Below, piece after piece: positions 5,576 through 26,357 of a stretch of 29,761 nucleotides of DNA. This DNA is from an uncultured Chloracidobacterium sp. (GTDB lineage Bacteria; Acidobacteriota; Blastocatellia; Pyrinomonadales; Pyrinomonadaceae): contig CAYSMU010000002.1 of the NCBI GenBank assembly GCA_964432145.1, positions 1 through 29,761 of the forward strand. Reading direction: 5' to 3'. Below the pieces are notes generated by a model. It had not been told where the DNA came from and ran no database searches. It saw only the letters and a program-made list of their open reading frames with translations. Both the position numbers and the translations under genes were made by a program. Positions within the stretch are counted from its first letter, which is position 1. Each line of letters begins with the position of its first letter.

Positions 5576-5691
5576 AGTGTTTTTTTCAAAAGAATGAATT
5601 AAATAATCAGTTTAAAAAGCCCGTCGAACAAAAGCAAGGAACGCTTGTCCTGCCTTTATCCCGGCCTGATTATCCTATATTCTTTCGCATT

Positions 5692-6333
5692 ATGTGCGGT
5701 CGTGCTTCCCAGGCTGAGATCCAGGCCTACAAGGACCATATTTACCAGTGGCTTCACCCGAAAAAGTTCGTTCCTCGCCGAAATCTTAGGCCAACTGAGC
5801 CGGCATGGATCGTCGCCCGCCATCCCGATACCGAGATCGCCATCGTCGATGCCCGATGGTGGTGTCAATGGGATGGGTCTTACAAGTTTGAAGCGAAATA
5901 CCCGACGTTCAATGCGCGTGTTGAGACAATGCATGATAAGAAGCTTTGGCCCGCTCTGCTGACCAAGGGGAAACGCTGCATATTTCCGGTTGATAGCTTT
6001 TACGAATGGCCCGTAAAGGGCAAAGGCCAGCCGCCCGTGGAGATTTTCGTCGCAGGACGAAGGCCTTATGCACTTGCGGGTCTGTGGAGTACATGGTTTG
6101 AAGATCGCGAACCAAGGTACTCTTTTACCGTTTTTACCTGTGATCCAAACGAGTTCATGAAGCCGATCCACCCTAAGGCGATGCCTGTCATTCTGGGATC
6201 GATCGAAGAACAAAAGCTTTGGTTGATGGAAGGGGATGAGTCGCTGTTGCGGCCATACGAAGGCGAAATGGAACTCGACCAATTGCCCGACACACTTGAA
6301 CATCTATACCCGGAAGAAAACCGGAAGTATTGA
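5692..6333 (+). CDS. SOS response-associated peptidase (SRAP/YedK/HMCES family, abasic-site crosslinking protein)
   Basis: N-terminal MCGR (catalytic Cys2), FNARVET, RCIFPVDSFYEW (catalytic Glu), ALAGLW, IHPKAMPVIL. Confidence 0.93.
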   Translation: MCGRASQAEIQAYKDHIYQWLHPKKFVPRRNLRPTEPAWIVARHPDTEIAIVDARWWCQWDGSYKFEAKYPTFNARVETMHDKKLWPALLTKGKRCIFPVDSFYEWPVKGKGQPPVEIFVAGRRPYALAGLWSTWFEDREPRYSFTVFTCDPNEFMKPIHPKAMPVILGSIEEQKLWLMEGDESLLRPYEGEMELDQLPDTLEHLYPEENRKY

Positions 6334-6984: not shown

Positions 6985-8085
6985 TTACATGATGGGCGAG
7001 CGGCCAGAACGCCCGATCTCAAGATCCGTCACTTTCCTAAATAGCCAATTGTTCAATCTCCGCGGATCGACGAATTCGACAAGTCCCGCCGTTCTTCGCT
7101 CGCCCTCGTTGGGGATCCCGAAAGTAATCTCGCTGAGCATCTTTGCCTCCATCAGGCCCGATCGAACGGGGATTATTGGCCTGATCCTGATAGACATATC
7201 ATCTTCGGTAATGAAGTTGACAGTTTCAGGGATCGTGAGTCCCCAGCGAGAACGTTTCCGCCCGATCGCCTCACAGTTCGCTTCGTAATGTTCGATCCTG
7301 CCGTTCCGGATGAGGAATATCTGACCAGGGGCGTGCCGGTTACGTGCGCCGCCGTGCCGGTCGAAAACAACCGTCGAATCGACGAAATGCGCCCGTCCCC
7401 ACAGCCGCGACTCCCGATCTCTATAATGAACGTCCTCACTTGTGATCTGATCGTGATAACCGGTCCCGCGGAATTGAACGGTTTTTCGTGCCTTCCCAAA
7501 CCGCCCGATCTGGATGATCTTCCCGCTCACATCGGCACGCGGGACCACGATGTTCCAGTTTGCAGGCGAGCGCGGGCGGTCAGGCTTCATAAGGTCAGAT
7601 TCGACGAAGAGCCATTCGAATTCACCCCTGAGCCTCCGGCCCCGCGCGGAACGCAGTTCGACCTTGACCAGAAATCCCGAGCCGTACTTCGCTTGTGCGA
7701 GACCAAAGCTTGAGTCTCCGATCGAGTAGTTTAGATCGTAACTATTGACATTGAACTCATTAGGCCGAAATTCGTTTACGGCCTGGAATACCGTCCGGCC
7801 CGCAACCATGTACACAAGCGAGACGGCCGGGAACCTTTGCGCTGACGAAGCACCGTTGCCCGTACCGACCTTGCGATCTCCGGCCGCCGCATGAAATCTG
7901 GGTGAGAGCGGATAGTTATCGTGGAAAGTGATGACCAGGGCCTCGCGCCCGTCATCTGAGACCGCATCAAAATGCCAGGATTCAAAAGCATTCGCTCCAC
8001 CGAGGCCATGCCATACGTCATCCTCCAGGCTGGAGCAAAACGACATCTCGCCGAAACGCGGGTTGTAACGAGGTTCACCAGTCAT
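6985..8085 (-). CDS. CrtC-like (carotenoid 1,2-hydratase / lipocalin-like) protein
   Basis: ESWHFDAVSDDGREALVITF resembles the CrtC N-terminal motif WWYxDAxSDDGxxxLxI. WNIVVPRADV and GTGYHD resemble the CrtC catalytic-region motifs. Confidence 0.65.
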   Translation of the reverse strand: MTGEPRYNPRFGEMSFCSSLEDDVWHGLGGANAFESWHFDAVSDDGREALVITFHDNYPLSPRFHAAAGDRKVGTGNGASSAQRFPAVSLVYMVAGRTVFQAVNEFRPNEFNVNSYDLNYSIGDSSFGLAQAKYGSGFLVKVELRSARGRRLRGEFEWLFVESDLMKPDRPRSPANWNIVVPRADVSGKIIQIGRFGKARKTVQFRGTGYHDQITSEDVHYRDRESRLWGRAHFVDSTVVFDRHGGARNRHAPGQIFLIRNGRIEHYEANCEAIGRKRSRWGLTIPETVNFITEDDMSIRIRPIIPVRSGLMEAKMLSEITFGIPNEGERRTAGLVEFVDPRRLNNWLFRKVTDLEIGRSGRSPIM

Positions 8086-8222
8086 CTATTTGATCGAGAG
8101 CACGGAAGAAAAACGTCTTCAGAATCGCAGAAATGCAAATCTATGGCAAACTTACGTTGAGAAATGGAATCTTTACGGTGGCAATAGCTCTTCCCGAAGA
8201 ATATGTGCCGAGGGAGATCAAT

Positions 8223-8597
8223 ATGAAGACGTTAACCACAACATTATTGCTGTCAATAGTCGCAGCATTCGCCCTTTTGACCGCAGCTTGCCCCGAGCGA
8301 AAGAGCATTGCAGATCTTGAGGCAAATCCCGGAAAATACCAAAACAAAGAGGTTGCGATCGCCGGTCGGGTCGTTGACAGTTATGGGATCTCGATACCGG
8401 GCACGCGTCTCGGAGGAGGAGCCTACAAAGTGGATGACGGGACCGGTTCTATTTGGGTCCTTGTCACGGACGGAAGCGTGCCTACTCGCGGAGCCGAGAT
8501 CGGTGTTAAAGGCAAGTTAAGCAGCGGCGTCAATTGGCGCGGCCGCAATTACGGTCTCGGGATCTACGAAAAGGACCGCCGCTATCGTGACCGATAG
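8223..8597 (+). CDS. Small lipoprotein with probable OB-fold
   Basis: Start reassigned to the ATG at 8223 after SD AGGGAG. Signal peptide with lipobox LTAA-C. SIADLEANPGKYQNKEVAIAGRV...YKVDDGTGSIWV is typical of periplasmic OB-fold proteins. Confidence 0.75.
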   Translation: MKTLTTTLLLSIVAAFALLTAACPERKSIADLEANPGKYQNKEVAIAGRVVDSYGISIPGTRLGGGAYKVDDGTGSIWVLVTDGSVPTRGAEIGVKGKLSSGVNWRGRNYGLGIYEKDRRYRDR

Positions 8598-8642
8598 TTC
8601 ACCGAACACGAATGCGGTGGTAAACTCTAGCGGCCGTCTAGA

Positions 8643-9137
8643 GTGCGGCCGTTATTTCTTATGGGTCCGCTGATCAAACTCTTCGACGACAGATTCGTGT
8701 TGATCGACCTTCGTTCGCGAGGTTTGCTTGACCTTCTCGATGAACAAACGTTGTATTCGCGGCCGCGTATTATCGCCAATTCAATGGCCCCATTCTCCTG
8801 CGGCGAATATATTCTCCGCTCCGCGGCGATGGTCGAAAAGACCTTTGGCGGTATAACAACCAGGCTCTGGGACGACCCGTTTGAATGGACGCTTCCCGAA
8901 AAACTCCGGGATATCCCGAGCGTTCGGGACTATCTGGATGACGTCGAAACGACCCGGCGAAACGGATTCCGCTTTTTGGCGTCCGACGATGACCTCCGTC
9001 GCGAGATCCCTTCACCGACCGCATTCCGCTCGCTTGCTGAAATTCTCCTGGATACCGTCGGATCGGCCGAGCATTATCAAGGCCGCGCCTTTGCCGTCTT
9101 TCAAATGATCTCCGATGTCCACCTTCCCCGGCTCTGA
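8643..9137 (+). CDS. Hypothetical protein, possibly degenerate DinB/YfiT-like four-helix bundle
   Basis: 164-aa ORF (GTG start; alternative ATG at 8660) fills the intergenic space. GEYILRSAAMVE and AEHYQGRA align in position with the DinB His motifs. Confidence 0.55.
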   Translation: MRPLFLMGPLIKLFDDRFVLIDLRSRGLLDLLDEQTLYSRPRIIANSMAPFSCGEYILRSAAMVEKTFGGITTRLWDDPFEWTLPEKLRDIPSVRDYLDDVETTRRNGFRFLASDDDLRREIPSPTAFRSLAEILLDTVGSAEHYQGRAFAVFQMISDVHLPRL

Positions 9138-9151
9138 TCTTTTTGCATATC

Positions 9152-9180
9152 GAACTTTTTCGTGCAAGAATTCGTTAGGT
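9152..9180 (+). promoter_or_regulatory. Candidate ECF sigma promoter (copy 1)
   Basis: GAAC (9152-9155), 17-nt spacer, CGTTAGGT (9173-9180), 33 nt before the ATG at 9214. The same 12 fixed bases recur at 16870-16898 on the minus strand. Confidence 0.65.
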
Positions 9181-9213
9181 TTTTGGACTACAACGGTTTA
9201 ACGGAGCGAATGC

Positions 9214-9747
9214 ATGCATTGTCCTGGATGCGGACAACAACAGGTTTCAAATGAGACTAAGTTTTGCTCGCGATGCGGACTTCCGCTAAGCGTGGTTGCG
9301 GAGGTGCTGTCTAACGGCGGCTATTTGCCGCAGCTTGCCGAGTTGAATAAGAAGACCACTGTTTTTACGCGGCGCAATGGGATCGCATTCAGCTTGTTAT
9401 GGTGCCTGTTTTTCCTCCTCGTTATGGCTCCGCTGTGGGGTATCGTTAACGTCGATAAACTAGCGGGTGCCTCCGCGGTGATCGGTATCTTCGGCGGGCT
9501 GATAATGTTCATTTCGTCTTTGATCTTTCTGAAGAAGCCCTTTGTATCTTACGGCGATTCACCGTATGTGCAGCCACCTGCACCCTTGTATGGAACGGGG
9601 CAGCAAAATGCTCTTCCGCCGCAGCAGTCGTTCCCCACATCCCAGTATGTTCCCGGGACCGGAAACTGGCGTGATACAAACGACCTACAGCCGGCGAGTG
9701 TCACTGAAAGCACTACTCGCCTGCTTCACGACGACGAGCGGCGTTGA
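9214..9747 (+). CDS. Zinc-ribbon, two-TM membrane protein (paralog 1)
   Basis: CPGC-x11-CSRC, two hydrophobic helices, Pro-rich tail, terminal GNWRDTNDLQPASVTESTTRLL. SD GGAG upstream. Confidence 0.88.
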   Translation: MHCPGCGQQQVSNETKFCSRCGLPLSVVAEVLSNGGYLPQLAELNKKTTVFTRRNGIAFSLLWCLFFLLVMAPLWGIVNVDKLAGASAVIGIFGGLIMFISSLIFLKKPFVSYGDSPYVQPPAPLYGTGQQNALPPQQSFPTSQYVPGTGNWRDTNDLQPASVTESTTRLLHDDERR

Positions 9748-9757
9748 TCTGGAAAAT

Positions 9758-10300
9758 ATGTATTGTCCATCGTGCGGCCAGCAACAAGTATCGATCCAGA
9801 CCAAGTTCTGCTCCCGGTGCGGCATGCCGATGGGCGTGGTAGCCGAGGTCGTGACAAACGGCGGTACGCTGCCGCAGCTTGAGCAGTTGGAGAAATTGAA
9901 CTTCAAAAAACCCTTCTTTTCTAAAAAGAACGGTGTGGTTTTTGGAACGTTCTGGTTTATTTTTCTGACTATGTTCTGCACCGCGTTCTTTGGGATCCTG
10001 GGTGCACCGGAAGAACTTATCGCGATTATCGCCATTTCTGGGGTGTTCGGAGCAATGATGATCATTATCGGTTCATTGGTGCTGCTCCCCAGTTCCAGGC
10101 CGCCTGTCGTAATGCCGTCATCGATGCAGCCATTTTTGGGAGCGGCAGGTTCACATCAGGCGTTGCCGCCGCAGCAATCGGTCCCCGCGTCGGTCTATGG
10201 AGCCCCGCAAGCCGGCAGTTGGCGCGACACCAACGACCTCCAGCCCACTAGCGTGACTGAGAATACAACGAGACTCCTTGAAGAAAAGGATAGGCGTTAG
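9758..10300 (+). CDS. Zinc-ribbon, two-TM membrane protein (paralog 2)
   Basis: Start reassigned to the ATG at 9758 by alignment with its paralogs (MYCPSCGQ...FCSRCG). Terminal GSWRDTNDLQPTSVTENTTRLL. Confidence 0.88.
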   Translation: MYCPSCGQQQVSIQTKFCSRCGMPMGVVAEVVTNGGTLPQLEQLEKLNFKKPFFSKKNGVVFGTFWFIFLTMFCTAFFGILGAPEELIAIIAISGVFGAMMIIIGSLVLLPSSRPPVVMPSSMQPFLGAAGSHQALPPQQSVPASVYGAPQAGSWRDTNDLQPTSVTENTTRLLEEKDRR

Positions 10301-10302
10301 TT

Positions 10303-10857
10303 ATGTTTTGCCCCCAGTGCGGACAGGAAAGGATCTCGATGGACACGAACTATTGTTCGCGGTGCGGATTTTTGCTGGTTGCGGTCGGCGAACTCCTACA
10401 CACCGGCGGCCAAAGCCCGATTGCCAGTCCAAATCCGGCGTCAGGCCTTCAATCACCGAGAAAACGCGGTCTTAAACAAGGGCTTTTCCTGTTCCTGCTG
10501 ACTTTTTTGGTAGCACCATTGATGGGTATGGTCTCCCTCGCTCTCGATATAGAGCCATTTCTTGTCGGGATAGCGGTGATCGTTTGTTTTATCGGAGGGC
10601 TGCTGCGGATGGTTTATGCGTTGATGTTCGAGGAAGCCTATGCAACAAATGCGACGTCGGACAATTTTCTCGATGCCGCTAAGCACCACCTTAACCGGGC
10701 TGCTTCAGCAGGAGCATTGCCGCCCCAGAAGTCGACTCCCGTATCTGCCTACACCGCTCCAAAAACCGGAAACTGGCGTGATACCAATGACCTCCAGCCC
10801 ACAAGTGTCGTCGAGGGAACGACAAAACTGCTTGAGAAGGACGAATTATCTCAATAA
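10303..10857 (+). CDS. Zinc-ribbon, two-TM membrane protein (paralog 3)
   Basis: MFCPQCGQ...YCSRCG, two TM helices, terminal GNWRDTNDLQPTSVVEGTTKLL. Starts after a 2-nt gap from paralog 2. Confidence 0.88.
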   Translation: MFCPQCGQERISMDTNYCSRCGFLLVAVGELLHTGGQSPIASPNPASGLQSPRKRGLKQGLFLFLLTFLVAPLMGMVSLALDIEPFLVGIAVIVCFIGGLLRMVYALMFEEAYATNATSDNFLDAAKHHLNRAASAGALPPQKSTPVSAYTAPKTGNWRDTNDLQPTSVVEGTTKLLEKDELSQ

Positions 10858-12587
10858 CCGACCGCCAGGCCATCGCTTCGCGAGTCTATCGCACCTAACC
10901 GCACACCTTTCTGATCGACCATAATGCCGGTCGCCGACGCTATATAGCCCGGACGCTCGGAAAACTTGTGACCGTAAGCTGACAGCACAGAGATCGTGTC
11001 GGGCGACATTCCATAGGGCTCGTACATCAGCTCATCCGGAAGCCACTGATGATGGACCCGCGGGGCATCGATCGCCTCCTGGATGTCCATGCCAAAATCG
11101 ATCACATTCATTACCGTCTGCATAACGGCCGAGATTATCCTCGGGCCGCCGCGTGCTCCGAGCGCGAACCAGAACGACCCGTCCTTGCGAAGCACTATCG
11201 TCGGCGTCATCGAGTAAAGCGGACGCTTGCCGCCCTCGACCTTGTTCCGTTCGCCCTGCACGAGACCAAAGAGGTTCGCACGTCCGGGCCGCGCGGCAAA
11301 ATCGTCCATCTCGTCGTTCAGCAGAACTCCGGTTCCTTTCGCCGTTACACGCGAGCCGTAGAGGTCATTGATGGTGTAAGTATTGGTAACGACGGTCCCA
11401 TCCCGATCGACGACGGTAAAATGCGTCGTGTCCATCGATTCGCTGCCGACAGGTTCGCCAAACCTGATATCTTTACTAGTTGACGCCTTTTTCAGATCTA
11501 TCGACGCTCGCCGTTGTTCGGCGTATTTTTTATCTATGAGCTTGGTAAACGGGACCTCCGCGAAATCAGGATCGCCCATATATTCCGCCCGATCGGCAAA
11601 TGCTCTTCGCATCGCCTCAACGAGCACGTGATATTTGGCGGAGGAGTTATGCTGCATCTTAGCAATGTCATAGCCCTCGAGCATATTGAGAACATTGAGC
11701 ATCACGACACCTCCCGAACTCGGCGGCGGCATGGTGATGATCTCGTGGCCGCGATACGTGCCTCGCAAGGGCGTACGCTCCTTTGCCACGTAGTTCCTCA
11801 GATCGTCTTCCGTGATCAGTCCGCCGTTCGCTTTCATATCCGCCGCAATGAGTTTCGCCGTCCGGCCTGTGTAAAACTCGCGTGCGCCGAAGCGTTCAAT
11901 ACGGCCGAGTGTCGCCGCCAGCTCAGGCTGACGAAACACGTCGCCCTCGCTAAAATATTTCCCTCCATTCAAAAATATCCGTTTGCTCTCGGGGTATTTT
12001 GACAATGTGTCCTTGTAGGCTTTGAATAGTTCGGCGAGGCGGTTCGACAGCACGTAACCATTCTGCGCGACCACTCGCGATGGACGGACGAGATCTGCCC
12101 ACGTGATCTTGCCCGAACCATATTTCTTGAATGCAAGATCAAACCCCGCAAGTGTTCCCGGCACGCCCGACGCACGATAGCCCACGGTCGACGAGCCTTC
12201 GCCGCGGATGAGATTTCCCTGTTTATCCACAAAGACATCGCGGGTCGCCGCCTTCGGCGCCATTTCCCGATAATCGATAGCAAACGCCTCGCCGTTTTGC
12301 TTTCTGATGAGCATAAAACCGCCGCCGCCGATATTCCCCGCCTCTGGATAAACAACAGCGAGAGCGATCCCGACCGCGATCGCCGCGTCCACGGCATTGC
12401 CGCCGCGCTTTAGCACGTCGACACCGATCTTCGACGCCAGTTCGTGCTGCGAGGCAACCATTGCGTGCCGCCCGCGGACGGGAGCCGGAGCGGCATGTAT
12501 CGAGACCGTACCAAACGGAACGACACCGACCAGAAACGAGAACGCGATCAACCCGGTGACCGCTATTCGATTTAGCCTTGATCTCAT
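10851..12587 (-). CDS. ggt: Gamma-glutamyltransferase, secreted
   Basis: Signal peptide; GGNAVDAA, GNIGGGGF, DYREMAP, PPPSSGG, autocatalytic TTHFTVVD, NDEMDDF, KRPLYSMTP, GARGG. Confidence 0.96.
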   Translation of the reverse strand: MRSRLNRIAVTGLIAFSFLVGVVPFGTVSIHAAPAPVRGRHAMVASQHELASKIGVDVLKRGGNAVDAAIAVGIALAVVYPEAGNIGGGGFMLIRKQNGEAFAIDYREMAPKAATRDVFVDKQGNLIRGEGSSTVGYRASGVPGTLAGFDLAFKKYGSGKITWADLVRPSRVVAQNGYVLSNRLAELFKAYKDTLSKYPESKRIFLNGGKYFSEGDVFRQPELAATLGRIERFGAREFYTGRTAKLIAADMKANGGLITEDDLRNYVAKERTPLRGTYRGHEIITMPPPSSGGVVMLNVLNMLEGYDIAKMQHNSSAKYHVLVEAMRRAFADRAEYMGDPDFAEVPFTKLIDKKYAEQRRASIDLKKASTSKDIRFGEPVGSESMDTTHFTVVDRDGTVVTNTYTINDLYGSRVTAKGTGVLLNDEMDDFAARPGRANLFGLVQGERNKVEGGKRPLYSMTPTIVLRKDGSFWFALGARGGPRIISAVMQTVMNVIDFGMDIQEAIDAPRVHHQWLPDELMYEPYGMSPDTISVLSAYGHKFSERPGYIASATGIMVDQKGVRLGAIDSRSDGLAVGY

Positions 12588-16905: not shown

Positions 16906-17457
16906 TCACCTCAGCGCGGTCCGGACACGAACCTTGGGCTGAGCTCCGGAGGGTGCGATATTCGCGTCCGATCGCTTCGCCTGGCAATCTGAACACAGCC
17001 CCCACATTCTCAGGCTGTGATGTGTCGGCCGAAAATGGAATTTGTCTGCCATCTCATCCTGTAACGCCTCGATCTCCGGTGAAAAGAACTCGATGACCTT
17101 TCCACATTCGGTGCAGATCATATGATCGTGATGTTCGTGCTCGTAATGGTGTTCGTAGTAGGTCTTGTTATCTCCAAACCGAACTTCCCGGGCGAGTCCG
17201 GCCTCGGTCAGGAGCTTGAGAGTACGGTAAACGGTGGTGAGCCCGACCGAGTCGTCCCGCTTGCGAACAAGGCCGTACAACGCCTCGCTTGTAAGGTGTT
17301 CCTCTGTGCTGAGAAATATCTCGAGGATCAGGTCGCGTTGGCCGGTCCTGCGCAGTCCCGCGGCATGAATGTGCTCATCGAGGATCGCCTTTTCTTTTTC
17401 AAATCTGTCAGGTCTCTTAGCCAATTTCGCCACCTTGCCAAGGCACGATACTACCAT
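16906..17457 (-). CDS. fur: Fur family transcriptional regulator
   Basis: RRTGQRDLIL, VGLTTVYRTLKLL (HTH), HHYEHEHHDHMICTECG and a second CxxC (CSDC). The true start may be the downstream GTG or TTG. Confidence 0.9.
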   Translation of the reverse strand: MVVSCLGKVAKLAKRPDRFEKEKAILDEHIHAAGLRRTGQRDLILEIFLSTEEHLTSEALYGLVRKRDDSVGLTTVYRTLKLLTEAGLAREVRFGDNKTYYEHHYEHEHHDHMICTECGKVIEFFSPEIEALQDEMADKFHFRPTHHSLRMWGLCSDCQAKRSDANIAPSGAQPKVRVRTALR

Positions 17458-18397: not shown

Positions 18398-21300
18398 TCA
18401 GGGACTTGTTACTATTTCCACGGAGGGGACTCCGTCACCCCATTTCGGGCCAGGAACGTCTATGTCCTCGATATCGGCGGTAGCTTCCATGGTACCCGCA
18501 TGGAATTGTCCTGAAAGTCCCTCCGCTGCACGATCTGCTACTCGTCGGATCAGTCGGAGATCCTGGCCCGTCAGCGACGCGACGCCGCCGGCTCCGTCCA
18601 CCAGCTCAAGGATGCGGAGAATGGCCGTACGCATCGCGTCCGATTCTGCTGCGTCGACTATCGCAGCCGCGTTTGACCGAAGCGCAACCTCGATCGACGA
18701 CAAACCGCTCTCCAGCGTCGAGCGAAGTTCTTTTGCTAAGTCACCGCCGCCTCCGTTTGAGAGAGCGAATGAACATCCGCAGTAGGGTCTTTCTTCAAGG
18801 ATATCCTTCGTCGGTGCATTACATTTCCTTCCGCGTATCTCACGGATCATTGCCCTCGCTGTTGAGAGGAAAGTAGGGTCCGCCCACGATGCATGGGATA
18901 AGTTTTCGAAGGCCGACCATTCGGGCGAGGCAAGTATCTCGCGCAGTTCCTCACCGGCTGTTGCGTCTCTCATAGCCCGGTCATGCCTCTCAACATAATG
19001 GTCCCGGAACGCAGAAATAAACCGCTCCCAGCTCGGAGCGACGAGCCCCGCGTCGCTCGATTTGGACCAAAACGCCTCCGGATCGATCGCAGCAAGCAAT
19101 TCGCTCCTGGCGGATTCAACCCCCGCGTCTGAAGTTGGTTCACAAACAGCAACGTAGGCGGCAATAGCGGAACGGCGAGATACGCTGCTTGTGAAATCGC
19201 CCAGGACACGAAGTTCGTTCTTTTTTCGTTCGAATTCTTCCTCAGAATCGGAGAAATTCTCCGCTATGGTATGCAAACACTGATCGAGCGAAATCTCATC
19301 TTTCACCAGTGCCTCGATGGCGGCCGCCATCGAACCAAAGGAATTGCGAAGACTGGCCGCCGTCTTCCATATCTGCGCGTTCAGACTCTCGTCGGGAAGG
19401 GACTCGAAATCCGCCAGGATCCGACTGTCGTTCCACGCCGTTAGCCAGCCGGTCAGCGAATCGATGACGAGCAGCCTGTCTTCGACCCGATCCAAGGACT
19501 TTATGCCGGAATTCCCGGTCGCAAGTTTGGCCCACGCAAGGAGCCGGTCGGGGGCGAAAAGTTCGTTGAGCGGCTTTGCAATTCCAACAATGTCGTCCCA
19601 GATGATCTGAAGGTCGAGTGAACGATGATTGATCCTGTTTCCGCTCGACGTGACAAACTCGAACTCGCGTTGCCCCACAAGAGCGGCAAGAACAAGATGC
19701 TGCGACTCCCGAGTGAGCCCAAATGGACGATCTCTCATCCGATCCCCAAGTTCTTCAAGGGAAATAACACCATTGTTCGGAGTTCCGACAGCATCAAAAG
19801 CAGCTCGGACCACCGGCAGTGAATTCAAGACTTCGGGGGGAGATGCAACGTATTCCTCGCCCTGTTTGATCGCGAGACCGAGTGGAGCGGCGAATGCTTC
19901 GACGAGTTTCTGAATATCCGGATCAGTCGGCCGCGTCCTGCCAAAGAACTCTCCAACCAGCGACGCCGCTTCCTTCATATTCAATGGGCTTTCGAATCGC
20001 GGATGCTCGGGAAATCGAGATTCGAATATCGGCTCCAAGAGGGGCGTCAGAAGCTGAGCCAGGCTGTGTAAGGCCGACGCATCGGGAGGAAAGCCAAACT
20101 TGCCTCCGTCTGCCTCGAGATGAGCATCTCTAAGAAAAACCCTCTGACAGATCTTGTCAACGCCAATGCTGTGCATATGCATCGCGTTCATCAACCCATC
20201 ACCGAGGCTCTCTCTGATACGCGCGTCATTCTGCAGGAGATAGTGTCTCCGGACCGTGTCTCTTTCTTCAGGGTCAAGGTCTGCGACGTTCCAGATGATC
20301 GCACTGGGATCGTCCGTTGGTTTTTTGTCCGCGTTAATTATCTGGATCCACCAGTCCGTTTTGTGCGGCCTGTCCTGATCCGAGGTTTGGCTCCATCGTA
20401 CCTCCCCTCGGCGCACAGCTCCGCGCCATTCCACGCTGCACGAAGATGGCATTCCCGCGTCCATTAGTGAAGCGTCGAGATCGCTGAATTTCTCGCCGGC
20501 CTGTCGAAGGAGCGTAAGCCAGACGGCATCATCATCCACTTCGGCCGCCGCGAGATTCAGCTCGTTTCCGCCACTCTCCTTGGCGGCAAGCCTAAGAGTG
20601 TATTTGGAAAGCTTACCGTCCTGTCCGGTACGCACGACGCCGTCGGGGAGAGCGTCTACGAATGTATCCAACAGATGCTCGACTTCGATTGACGGGCTGT
20701 AAGATTCTTCCGCATCGAAGATCATCATCGATGCGGCAATTTCCGCTGCGGTCGTTCCCTGCCCGTCGAGCGAAAGCATAAACAGCCCTTTAAGGGCCAG
20801 TTTTGCCTGCAAACGCTGCTGGACCGGCATCTTGGCGACAACCTGCAGCTCGAGGCGGTCATATGCTTCAAATGACTCTTTCAGCTCAACGGTCGCCCTA
20901 AGGCGTTTTTCCACGCTGTCAAAGACCTCATCGAGACCGATAAGGGAATTAGCCGGTCGCCCAAGTATTTTGACGCCTGCCTCAGAGGCAAAGCCAAGTA
21001 GTGCAAACTCCTGAATATAGAGCCGGATCAGCGGAGCGATCTCCACCGTAGCTGGGTGCAGCGGATAGAGCGACGTAAACCGCTGTTCGCTCCACCTGAA
21101 TCCCGGCATCAGCCGCCGGTAATCTTCGTATATCTCGCGAAGCAGCGGTAGCTTTGTACTATTTTTGGTAAATATGTGCGAATCGACGATCTTGTACAAG
21201 TGTTCCTGGTCAAGATAATTGATCGAGAAATTCGCGGAGATCGAAGAATTTGGCCCGTCCGCGCCTGAAATATCGTCGTCGAGGGCGACCCCGACAAAGA

Positions 21301-21883
21301 TCCCCAGGGTATCGGCCGCCTCGGCGATCTCGCTGATCATCGGCCCATCGTCACGTGCGACTCGCGTCTCCCTTCCCGGCGCCGTGTCGATAAGCACGAC
21401 CAGAGGACTATCACCGGCGTGTTCCGACGCCCGCAGCAGCAGGTCGTACAGGGAGTCGCTGAGAGTACCGGGATTTACACTTAATAGCTCCGCAACGGCC
21501 CTTTTCAGTTCATCAACCAGTGACGTGCCCGATCCGCGCCGGATAAACGCAACACTGCCGTGCTTGCGAGAAAGCCGTTCCGCCGCCGCTGCGACGTAAG
21601 AATCTGAGATTCTCACCCTCAGTTCGGGCCGGGAGACGATGCTTGCGATCACCGCGAGAAAATGGCTCTTTCCGACACCCCTGAAGCCTGCCAGTGCAAG
21701 GGCGGCGCCTTGTCCGGGCCGGACCCGAGAGACACGGTCGATCCATTTGGCCATTAGATCGGCGGTAATATCGGTAAAATGATATCCCCCGAGCGTCAAT
21801 GACGGATCGGCACCAAAGTCATGTAAGTGAACAAAAGGGCGGACCTCAACGATGTCCTTGACCTTTTCGACGACTCGCTTCAT
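18398..21883 (-). CDS. Large P-loop NTPase-like protein, DUF6079/BrxC(PglY)-like
   Basis: 1161 aa. Walker A GFRGVGKS(H), Walker B position VVLIDT, LYPLHP motif, long helical/coiled-coil region, C-terminal C-x13-CxC (KC...PYCGC). Confidence 0.65.
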   Translation of the reverse strand: MKRVVEKVKDIVEVRPFVHLHDFGADPSLTLGGYHFTDITADLMAKWIDRVSRVRPGQGAALALAGFRGVGKSHFLAVIASIVSRPELRVRISDSYVAAAAERLSRKHGSVAFIRRGSGTSLVDELKRAVAELLSVNPGTLSDSLYDLLLRASEHAGDSPLVVLIDTAPGRETRVARDDGPMISEIAEAADTLGIFVGVALDDDISGADGPNSSISANFSINYLDQEHLYKIVDSHIFTKNSTKLPLLREIYEDYRRLMPGFRWSEQRFTSLYPLHPATVEIAPLIRLYIQEFALLGFASEAGVKILGRPANSLIGLDEVFDSVEKRLRATVELKESFEAYDRLELQVVAKMPVQQRLQAKLALKGLFMLSLDGQGTTAAEIAASMMIFDAEESYSPSIEVEHLLDTFVDALPDGVVRTGQDGKLSKYTLRLAAKESGGNELNLAAAEVDDDAVWLTLLRQAGEKFSDLDASLMDAGMPSSCSVEWRGAVRRGEVRWSQTSDQDRPHKTDWWIQIINADKKPTDDPSAIIWNVADLDPEERDTVRRHYLLQNDARIRESLGDGLMNAMHMHSIGVDKICQRVFLRDAHLEADGGKFGFPPDASALHSLAQLLTPLLEPIFESRFPEHPRFESPLNMKEAASLVGEFFGRTRPTDPDIQKLVEAFAAPLGLAIKQGEEYVASPPEVLNSLPVVRAAFDAVGTPNNGVISLEELGDRMRDRPFGLTRESQHLVLAALVGQREFEFVTSSGNRINHRSLDLQIIWDDIVGIAKPLNELFAPDRLLAWAKLATGNSGIKSLDRVEDRLLVIDSLTGWLTAWNDSRILADFESLPDESLNAQIWKTAASLRNSFGSMAAAIEALVKDEISLDQCLHTIAENFSDSEEEFERKKNELRVLGDFTSSVSRRSAIAAYVAVCEPTSDAGVESARSELLAAIDPEAFWSKSSDAGLVAPSWERFISAFRDHYVERHDRAMRDATAGEELREILASPEWSAFENLSHASWADPTFLSTARAMIREIRGRKCNAPTKDILEERPYCGCSFALSNGGGGDLAKELRSTLESGLSSIEVALRSNAAAIVDAAESDAMRTAILRILELVDGAGGVASLTGQDLRLIRRVADRAAEGLSGQFHAGTMEATADIEDIDVPGPKWGDGVPSVEIVTSP

Positions 21884-25694: not shown

Positions 25695-26357
25695 TTAGGG
25701 CCGACGTTCCGGTTTCGGCTTCGTATTTGCGGCCGGCTTCGTCGTCGGATTTGGCACACGCCCGGGAACGGCCTGCGTGTTCTTGTTCGGTTTATCCGAA
25801 GTGTTGCCTGCCGGAGCGACCTCTTTCTTATTCGAATTCGACTCGGACGAATTCGAGTTCGAGTTTGACGCTCCGTCCGAGTTTGACTCGCCGTTAACGT
25901 CTCGCGCCGTATCGGCTTTCTTTTTATTGGTATTTGTATTGCTTTTAGGCTTTTTCGGCTTGTCCGTGATCATTTCCTCGATCTTTTCCGAGTCATCTTC
26001 GTCGGAGGAGTTTTTAAGGCTGTCGGGCTGAGTTCCGTCCCCCGGCCCTTTGCTGGTAACGACCAGGATCAACTGCCCTGTTTTCACGGTTTCGCCCGCC
26101 TTTGGAAGCTGCTCGATCACTGTCCCGGGGCTTTCCTGACTAAATCGATCTGCCCGCTTTTTGACCTTCAACCCGAGCGAGGCGAGTTCGGCTTCTCCGG
26201 TGCCGAGGTCTTTGCCGGTGATCTCGGGCACCTGTACTTCTCTGCCCTGCAGCGACATATAGACAACACCGGCCATTCCAAAAAGAAAAGCCACGGCTAA
26301 AACAGCGATCGCCGCTAAACGTCCTAAAGCGGAAAAACCCGAGTTAATAATACTCAT
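25695..26357 (-). CDS. Membrane-anchored single PASTA domain protein
   Basis: N-terminal TM, then VQVPEITGKDLGTGEAELASLGL...PGTVIEQLPKAGETVKTGQLILVVTSKG (PASTA), then a disordered Asn/Ser/Lys tail. Confidence 0.88.
   Translation of the reverse strand: MSIINSGFSALGRLAAIAVLAVAFLFGMAGVVYMSLQGREVQVPEITGKDLGTGEAELASLGLKVKKRADRFSQESPGTVIEQLPKAGETVKTGQLILVVTSKGPGDGTQPDSLKNSSDEDDSEKIEEMITDKPKKPKSNTNTNKKKADTARDVNGESNSDGASNSNSNSSESNSNKKEVAPAGNTSDKPNKNTQAVPGRVPNPTTKPAANTKPKPERRP

Follow-up and report, generated by a model that had tools for sequence, protein, structure and literature searches.

Why do three adjacent genes for small zinc-ribbon membrane proteins encode nearly the same C-terminal peptide, and what might this peptide contact? 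The question is raised by a contig of an uncultured Chloracidobacterium sp. (CAYSMU010000002.1, assembly GCA_964432145.1), of which a stretch of 29,761 nucleotides (nt), hereafter termed the window, was analyzed. On its plus strand, gene 1 (9214–9747, 177 amino acids (aa)), gene 2 (9758–10300, 180 aa), and gene 3 (10303–10857, 184 aa) follow each other in tandem with intergenic gaps of 10 and 2 nt. The proteins define a family that is strongly constrained, uncharacterized, and restricted to one group of soil Acidobacteria, the Pyrinomonadaceae/Blastocatellia. Pyrinomonadaceae are abundant in soil, but hardly any genetics exists for them. New here are the pairing of an A-type with a B-type gene, the existence of two hairpin types, the exclusivity of the C-terminal motif, and a dedicated cis element upstream of the genes.

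The three proteins share one architecture

In a three-way alignment, the product of gene 1 is 52% identical to that of gene 2 and 41% identical to that of gene 3. Invariant in all three are the blocks CPxCGQ-x9-CSRCG (equivalent to CxxC-x11-CxxC) and V-x-E-x4-GG as well as ALPPQxSxPxSxY and WRDTNDLQPxSVxExTTxLL. The cysteines C3, C6, C18, and C21 are invariant across 139 sequences and make up a Cys4 site with two CxxC knuckles, which corresponds to 9220–9276 in gene 1 and to residues 3–21 in genes 2 and 3. Kyte–Doolittle profiles display two hydrophobic helices in each protein. This transmembrane (TM) hairpin covers approximately residues 56–106 of gene 1 (9379–9531), helices 56–80 and 85–109 of gene 2 (9923–10084), and helices 52–81 and 86–109 of gene 3 (10456–10629). 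Toward the C-terminus, the tail box begins at A133 (9610), A135 (10160), and A138 (10714), and the core motif spans W152–L171 (9667–9726), W155–L174 (10220–10279), and W158–L177 (10774–10833) in genes 1, 2, and 3, respectively. The initial annotation had placed the three genes, their gaps, and the shared architecture just as the open reading frame (ORF) list and the alignment do, and its starting points for the peptide (9661, 10214, and 10768) are correct.

AlphaFold2 monomer models were built for gene 2 from 139 sequences and for gene 3 from 129. The gene 2 model reaches a mean predicted local distance difference test (pLDDT) score of 79, with 92–98 in the TM hairpin. Its ribbon is formed by paired β-bridges at residues 2/9/17/24 (pLDDT 84–86), followed by helices 25–33 and 39–48. 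Behind TM2, the model contains no regular secondary structure apart from two isolated three-residue helical turns, and the pLDDT falls to 53–73. The linker of gene 2 comprises residues 110–134. The gene 3 model is equivalent (pLDDT 72, hairpin 89–96, tail 48–67); here, a helix at 25–33 follows the ribbon, and the linker contains a short helix at 123–130. Across the family, the segment between TM2 and the motif measures 41–57 residues, is rich in P, A, Q, S, and G, and is poorly conserved. The motif finishes 3–13 residues short of the C-terminus in nearly all members, within an acidic C-terminal segment (net charge about −3) whose last residues are variable.

The flanks of the hairpin are rich in lysine and arginine (KKxxFxKKNG and SS[KR]; RKRGLKQG in B-type proteins), while the loop between the TM helices is only 4–6 residues long and acidic (APEE, IEP). 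Together with the N-terminal Cys4 site, the basic flanks and the acidic loop point to an N-in/C-in topology, such that both conserved ends probably face one side, the cytoplasm, as had been proposed from the sequence before. Neither the whole-family nor the tail profile has a significant match among PDB sequences, and a Foldseek comparison of the A-type model with the PDB returns no match with an E-value below 5.

The tail is constrained at the protein level and private to the family

To locate the constraint, mean pairwise identities were determined by region within A-type proteins (genes 1 and 2 and their like), within B-type proteins (gene 3 and its like), and between A and B. In this order, the ribbon scores 0.86, 0.80, and 0.60, the juxta-ribbon helices 0.65, 0.43, and 0.25, the TM hairpin 0.67, 0.69, and 0.22, the linker 0.29, 0.28, and 0.06, the PPQ box 0.59, 0.49, and 0.50, and the tail core 0.82, 0.83, and 0.80. 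The tail is the sole part that is alike in both types. The hairpins, in contrast, are two fixed types and not freely variable: the divergence ascribed to them at first holds between the types (22%) but not within a type (67–69%). The idea of variable membrane sensors is therefore not supported, since each hairpin type is conserved and the outside loop lacks the length of a sensing domain.

The tail consensus reads W-R-D-T-x-D-L-x-P-x-S-V-T-E-x-T-T-[KR]-L-L, followed by the acidic end. Fully invariant are only the tryptophan, T171, and L174 (gene 2 numbering), the latter two forming a TxxL pattern; a second TxxL, T158/L161, is conserved to at least 90%. Nei–Gojobori counts over the 24-codon tail core give proportions of synonymous differences (pS) of 0.97, 0.59, and 0.88 for the three gene pairs, as against proportions of nonsynonymous differences (pN) of 0.13, 0.20, and 0.14. 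The ribbon likewise keeps its peptide while its synonymous sites are saturated. Such saturation next to a preserved peptide shows that selection acts on the protein, in line with the initial annotation. It excludes a recent duplication and gene conversion, and a feature of the nucleotide sequence does not account for the peptide either.

A profile of the 46-residue tail was searched against 1.84 billion representative proteins and retrieves 206 clusters at E ≤ 0.001, 94 of them at E ≤ 1e-10. Among the best 150 of the 206 clusters, which were examined, nearly all proteins are at most 190 aa long and match at their C-terminus. Long matches (P0343, P0378, and P0383) are Kelch, tetratricopeptide, or other repeat proteins, in which the score sums up weak repeats. 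P0384, which combines a signal peptide, a CarboxypepD_reg domain, one TM helix, and the tail, was rejected as a second architecture because it is most likely a three-way assembly chimera. It lies on a lone 1.3-kb contig (Ga0395527_119020, JGI, L081), and its middle third is 75–92% identical to LivH-type permeases of Hyphomicrobiales. This chimera would mislead surveys of domain architecture. Moreover, no ORF from outside the family carries the motif in 0.85 Mb of Pyrinomonadaceae DNA. The tail motif is thus private to this family, and a modular system, as once suggested, is not supported: the only non-family matches among the 150 clusters are the repeat false positives and the one chimera. Within the family, in turn, the motif is present in every homologue inspected, comprising the best 120 of 1867 relatives and all 80 genome loci described below, and its conservation thus extends beyond the window.

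The conserved unit is an A–B gene pair

A genome scan with one genome per species yielded 203 relatives, of which 80 loci were kept. All of these belong to Pyrinomonadaceae, Pyrinomonadales, Blastocatellia, or metagenome-assembled genomes (MAGs) named "Chloracidobacterium sp.". Copies were counted by a hidden Markov model search of six-frame ORFs in 81 sources, namely the 80 loci and the window. Two tandem copies are found in 50 of the 81 sources, one copy in 27, and three copies in four (the window, L001, L032, and L051). In 49 of the 50 two-copy loci, an A-type gene, similar to gene 1 or 2, precedes a B-type gene, similar to gene 3, with a spacing of a few nt or an overlap. A B-type gene is never seen in the 81 sources without an A-type gene upstream, and in about 22 genomes a single A-type gene is directly followed by a gamma-glutamyltranspeptidase (GGT) gene. 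The conserved unit is therefore the A–B pair, to which the window adds a second A-type gene; three tandem genes are indeed present, but the triplet is not the unit as which it was first described.

In a neighbor-joining tree, genes 1 and 2 fall into different deep A sub-lineages (A1 and A2), and all 83 A-type sequences descend from their common ancestor. Each of the two clusters with the single A copy of other genomes; gene 1 is closest to L001 and to the lone A copy of each of L064, L052, and L056. This placement identifies the window as A1–A2–B and not as a recent local triplication.

The order of genes in most loci is aconitase (acn), o366 (minus strand), o154 (plus), o164 (plus), the zinc-ribbon genes, GGT (minus), Nramp (plus), and MscS-cNMP (plus). 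All loci represent one orthologous chromosomal locus. In the window, gene 3 and the GGT gene (10851–12587, minus strand) are convergent, and their 3′ ends overlap by 7 nt (10851–10857). The tail-to-tail abutment of the last family gene with the GGT gene recurs in most related loci.

A 25-nt core element precedes the first family gene

When the 80 loci are aligned over the 150 nt that precede their first family gene, a conserved block, TTGCA(T)-n3-GAACTTTTTCGTGnAAGAATTCGTT, stands out from unconserved flanking DNA. In the window, it reads TTGCAT-atc-GAACTTTTTCGTGcAAGAATTCGTT (9143–9176, plus strand), begins six nt after the stop codon of o164 (9137), and ends 38 nt before the ATG of gene 1 at 9214. 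A Shine–Dalgarno-like GGAG read from the sequence (9203–9206, plus strand) is located 7 nt before this ATG and is conserved as a column when the upstream regions are aligned. The 25-nt core occurs once in the window, where chance predicts 0 matches. Of the 80 loci, 37 contain it without a mismatch, and every one contains a recognizable version with few changes, at about 1.8–2 bits per core position. Further copies are found neither elsewhere in the window nor in the loci. A degenerate core detects at least 120 metagenome contigs, and among the matches listed, a family gene lies directly downstream in all 118 that include downstream DNA. A shared operator or regulon site in this form was rejected on these grounds, as every informative metagenome match stands before a family gene. 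An RNA element was likewise dismissed: no Rfam family matches 8000–11000, and inspection by eye displays just weak 4-bp pairing.

The hallmark of promoters recognized by extracytoplasmic function (ECF) sigma factors is a −35 AAC and a −10 CGT motif, 16–17 nt apart. The element fits this pattern with GAAC at 9152–9155, a 17-nt spacer, and CGTT at 9173–9176. These −35- and −10-like ends are kept in all loci; even the two most divergent ones (L051 and L071), whose spacer differs, retain GAACTTTT and TCGT at an unchanged distance. The promoter is thus probably of the ECF type, which suggests stress-dependent expression of the operon. The same bases also fit a sigma-70-like TTGCAT-N17-TGcAAGAAT, and TTCGT occurs twice in the element, 12 nt apart. 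A promoter of the sigma-70 kind, overlapped by an operator, could equally account for the element.

The family is absent from curated collections and often truncated in public records

At E ≤ 0.001, gene 2 retrieves 1867 proteins and gene 3 retrieves 800, nearly all of them 155–190 aa long. Their names, from Chloracidobacterium or Pyrinomonadaceae MAGs, are only "hypothetical" or "zinc ribbon domain-containing protein". According to precomputed annotation, Pfam domains are rare among them, and few carry PF13248 or PF13240. No Pfam-A or NCBIfam model reaches its cut-off for the window proteins. The best Pfam matches are zinc-ribbon models below their gathering scores (24.3 bits against a threshold of 27 for gene 2, 20.0 against 25 for gene 3, and 17.6 against 27.3 for gene 1), and the ribbon scores 16.8 bits against the NCBIfam "4-Cys prefix" model NF045510, which has a cut-off of 24. 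PADLOC gives no match better than E = 0.098. Matches to PHROG are weak, concern families of unknown function, and cover mostly the ribbon only; phrog_6586 (E = 1.4e-4) spans residues 1–97 of gene 1. No relatives were found on viral contigs. A text search of the literature found the motif strings in no paper, and a search for Pyrinomonadaceae together with ECF sigma factors and zinc ribbons returned general ECF papers only. None of these sources gives the family a functional name.

The start of gene 2 at ATG 9758 lies within a longer ORF beginning with TTG and is supported by orthologues, which show MxCPxCGQ. The database call for gene 2 (P0001, 158 aa) begins at an internal methionine, and the ribbon is lost. 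Public calls for the family (P0001, P0002, P0126, and others) often start in this way; the stretches concerned in the window are 9758–9826 and 10303–10341. Miscalled A-type genes measure 154–162 aa and start with "MP[ML]G..", and miscalled B-type genes measure 169–175 aa. As these miscalls remove part or all of the zinc ribbon, the family appears ribbon-less in many records.

A membrane complex with a docking tail is the favored, tentative reading

We tentatively favor a reading in which A- and B-type proteins form a small membrane complex whose flexible cytoplasmic tails dock one common partner. Each protein would enter the membrane as a helical hairpin and leave both its ends in the cytoplasm, and A and B would associate in the membrane via their differing, type-conserved hairpins. 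The tail would dock a single cytoplasmic partner at the membrane, and the zinc ribbon would offer a second cytoplasmic surface. Expression of the operon would start from the dedicated, probably ECF-type promoter. A shared docking tail is proposed because the tail is the same in A and B and disordered in the monomer models.

Several points weigh against this reading. The topology it presupposes is a prediction from hydropathy and charge only. The A-only genomes indicate that B is dispensable and a heteromer not obligatory. Since the whole 12-kb neighborhood is syntenic, adjacency carries no functional signal; further, no sigma factor, FHA (forkhead-associated), kinase, or protease gene is conserved beside the locus in the 80 loci. 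Additionally, the spacer of the cis element is conserved as strongly as its −35- and −10-like ends, which a plain promoter would not need.

Alternatively, the tail may turn inward and pack on the zinc ribbon of its own or a neighboring subunit as an assembly or auto-inhibitory strand. Such packing would explain the joint conservation of ribbon and tail core, the most conserved parts between A and B (0.60 and 0.80, compared with 0.22–0.25 for hairpin and helices). The tail is rich in β-branched residues (S-V-T-E-x-T-T), which suits strand addition, and the pLDDT of the A-type tail is moderate (64–73) rather than very low. However, DSSP assigns no tail strand in either monomer model and only isolated bridges in the ribbon, the B-type tail has a pLDDT of about 50–58, and an unconserved tether of 41–57 residues is more typical of a motif that reaches out. 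We therefore consider tail–ribbon packing rather unlikely; if the peptide serves internal assembly only, the genes encode a well-defined but ordinary lineage-specific membrane family. The C-terminal segment is disordered and accessible, and nearly all members have the motif within 3–13 residues of their end; both would also suit a degron or adaptor tag for regulated turnover by a cytoplasmic AAA+ protease. To our knowledge, known C-terminal degrons are far less specific than a nearly invariant motif of 20 residues. Judged against them, the motif is too specific; the final residues are variable, no protease gene is linked, and a role in turnover is very unlikely. It is highly improbable that the hairpins oligomerize into a small pore or a membrane-perturbing assembly of the holin or channel kind, with the cytoplasmic ends as regulatory parts: the conservation of the TM helices beyond plain hydrophobicity, their Gly/Ala/Ser-rich faces, their pLDDT of 92–98, and the weak PHROG matches to phage zinc-ribbon/TM proteins of unknown function would agree with it, but the family has no relatives on viral contigs, no PADLOC match, and no lysis or defense neighbors, and it resides at a stable chromosomal locus.

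Other alternatives give the docked partner an identity. A phospho-threonine docking site would imply that a Ser/Thr kinase modifies the threonine of TxxL and that an FHA protein reads it. FHA domains commonly favor I, L, or V at position pT+3, and the invariant T171/L174 as well as the second pair T158/L161 (at least 90% conserved) fit the ligand pattern of a threonine with L, I, V, or D at +3, which is weakly specific; the sub-threshold match of the ribbon to the "4-Cys prefix" model adds a faint lead. Such recognition would, however, leave about 15 other conserved residues unexplained by a very short pattern, and FHA and kinase genes are missing from the scanned window ORFs and from the conserved neighborhood, so that we regard this site as distinctly unlikely. 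An unconventional membrane tether of the anti-sigma kind for an unlinked ECF sigma factor, which would itself drive the promoter in a negative feedback, would match the GAAC-N17-CGTT element, whose ECF motifs stand at the right spacing and persist in the two most divergent loci despite the changed spacer. A cytoplasmic zinc-binding N-terminus plus a membrane anchor agrees with it too, and anti-sigma factors with two TM helices have been described in 14 ECF groups (PMC7826278). On the other hand, an ECF sigma gene is usually encoded together with its anti-sigma gene (PMC7826278), while a Pfam scan of the 24 ORFs in the window that reach 120 aa detects no sigma factor (Sigma70_r2/r4), FHA, or kinase gene. 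No zf-HC2, RskA, or other anti-sigma model of Pfam or NCBIfam matches even at E ≤ 1, the ribbon is CxxC-x11-CxxC and not HxxxCxxC, and a sigma-70 promoter plus operator would explain the cis element equally well. This tether is accordingly quite unlikely.

A broader proposal is that the A/B pair and its tail constitute an undescribed signaling module of the Pyrinomonadaceae, in which a two-protein membrane sensor without an outside domain, under an auto-regulated ECF-type promoter, would release a tail-held regulator of transcription or stress when the membrane is stressed. Candidates for this regulator are, for example, an ECF sigma factor encoded elsewhere and an FHA protein reading phospho-TxxL. 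In this extended form the proposal is unlikely. For the docking complex that we favor, the ECF-like promoter and the TxxL spacing of the invariant tail residues are two weak leads to the partner. Three strong constraints coincide in this one locus, namely the tail peptide, the fixed A-then-B pair, and the 25-nt promoter element, and their joint presence speaks for a specific, conserved molecular interaction and for a regulatory input, neither of which has been described so far. A reader of the peptide, once found, would add a motif–reader pair and provide a handle on stress signaling in the phylum.

Further features of the window

Upstream of the cis element, o154 (8133–8597, plus strand) is lipoprotein-like with a faint OB-fold match and occurs in 67 of the 80 loci; o164 (8643–9137, plus strand, 164 aa) occurs in 69. 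Neither has a family or structure match, and no functional link is drawn from them because the whole region is syntenic. A terminator-like hairpin (8628–8654; 10 pairs, six of them G–C, then a T-rich run) stands just after o154. As it overlaps the annotated GTG start of o164 at 8643, the true start of o164 may be further downstream.

Elsewhere, an 1161-aa protein on the minus strand (18398–21883) with DUF6079 and AAA_16 matches is possibly a large STAND/BREX-like ATPase. It adjoins a Fur-family regulator (16906–17457) and a DUF2520/Rossmann protein. Two ORFs, 5656–6303 (minus) and 5692–6333 (plus), mirror each other; only the plus-strand one matches a family (SRAP peptidase), so that its counterpart is probably a shadow ORF. 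SRAP is found at this position in just 4 of the 80 related loci. A 220-aa PASTA protein without a kinase domain (25695–26357, minus strand) belongs to a cluster of fmt, rhodanese/UPF0176, rsmB, PASTA, and rpe. Located 15 kb from the family genes, it contains the only Ser/Thr-kinase-associated domain of the window.

Comparison with known systems

The family may be counted among the zinc-ribbon membrane tether proteins. Its N-terminus is a generic ribbon, and the rest matches no curated family. Generic zinc ribbons (PF13248 Zn_ribbon_3, PF13240 Zn_Ribbon_1, and PF12773 DZR) likewise begin with two CxxC knuckles, separated by 11 residues, at the very N-terminus. These models describe the first 25 residues only, while hairpin, linker, and tail lie outside them. 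DUF983 (PF06170) and similar proteins combine an N-terminal CxxC...CxxC with two TM helices and are of unknown function; they are a lead only. The family's long linker and tail motif are missing from them, and neither DUF983 nor any other curated zinc-ribbon membrane family in Pfam-A or NCBIfam matches at E ≤ 1. The sorting signals PEP-CTERM, GlyGly-CTERM, and LPXTG resemble the tail as short conserved motifs near the C-terminus of a lineage-restricted set of proteins. In these signals, however, a TM helix and a basic cluster come after the motif, which is found on many different proteins, whereas here it is followed by 3–13 acidic or polar residues without a TM helix and is confined to one family.

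Zinc-binding anti-sigma (ZAS) factors of the RsiW/RslA class share with the family a zinc-binding N-terminus that is cytoplasmic, as predicted here, a membrane anchor, and an ECF-like motif before the operon. The family differs from them in lacking HxxxCxxC, a match to the four-helix anti-sigma domain, an adjacent sigma gene, and an extracytoplasmic sensor domain, and its C-terminus is predicted to be cytoplasmic. PspB and PspC offer a functional analogy only. They, too, are small, adjacent, co-expressed inner-membrane pairs without an outside domain, under a dedicated promoter, and are thought to hold a cytoplasmic partner. The Psp promoter depends on sigma-54, and there is no sequence or domain similarity to the family, from which PspB and PspC differ in topology and domains. 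What the proposed tether would have in common with PspB/PspC or with membrane anti-sigma factors is the holding of a soluble protein at the membrane.

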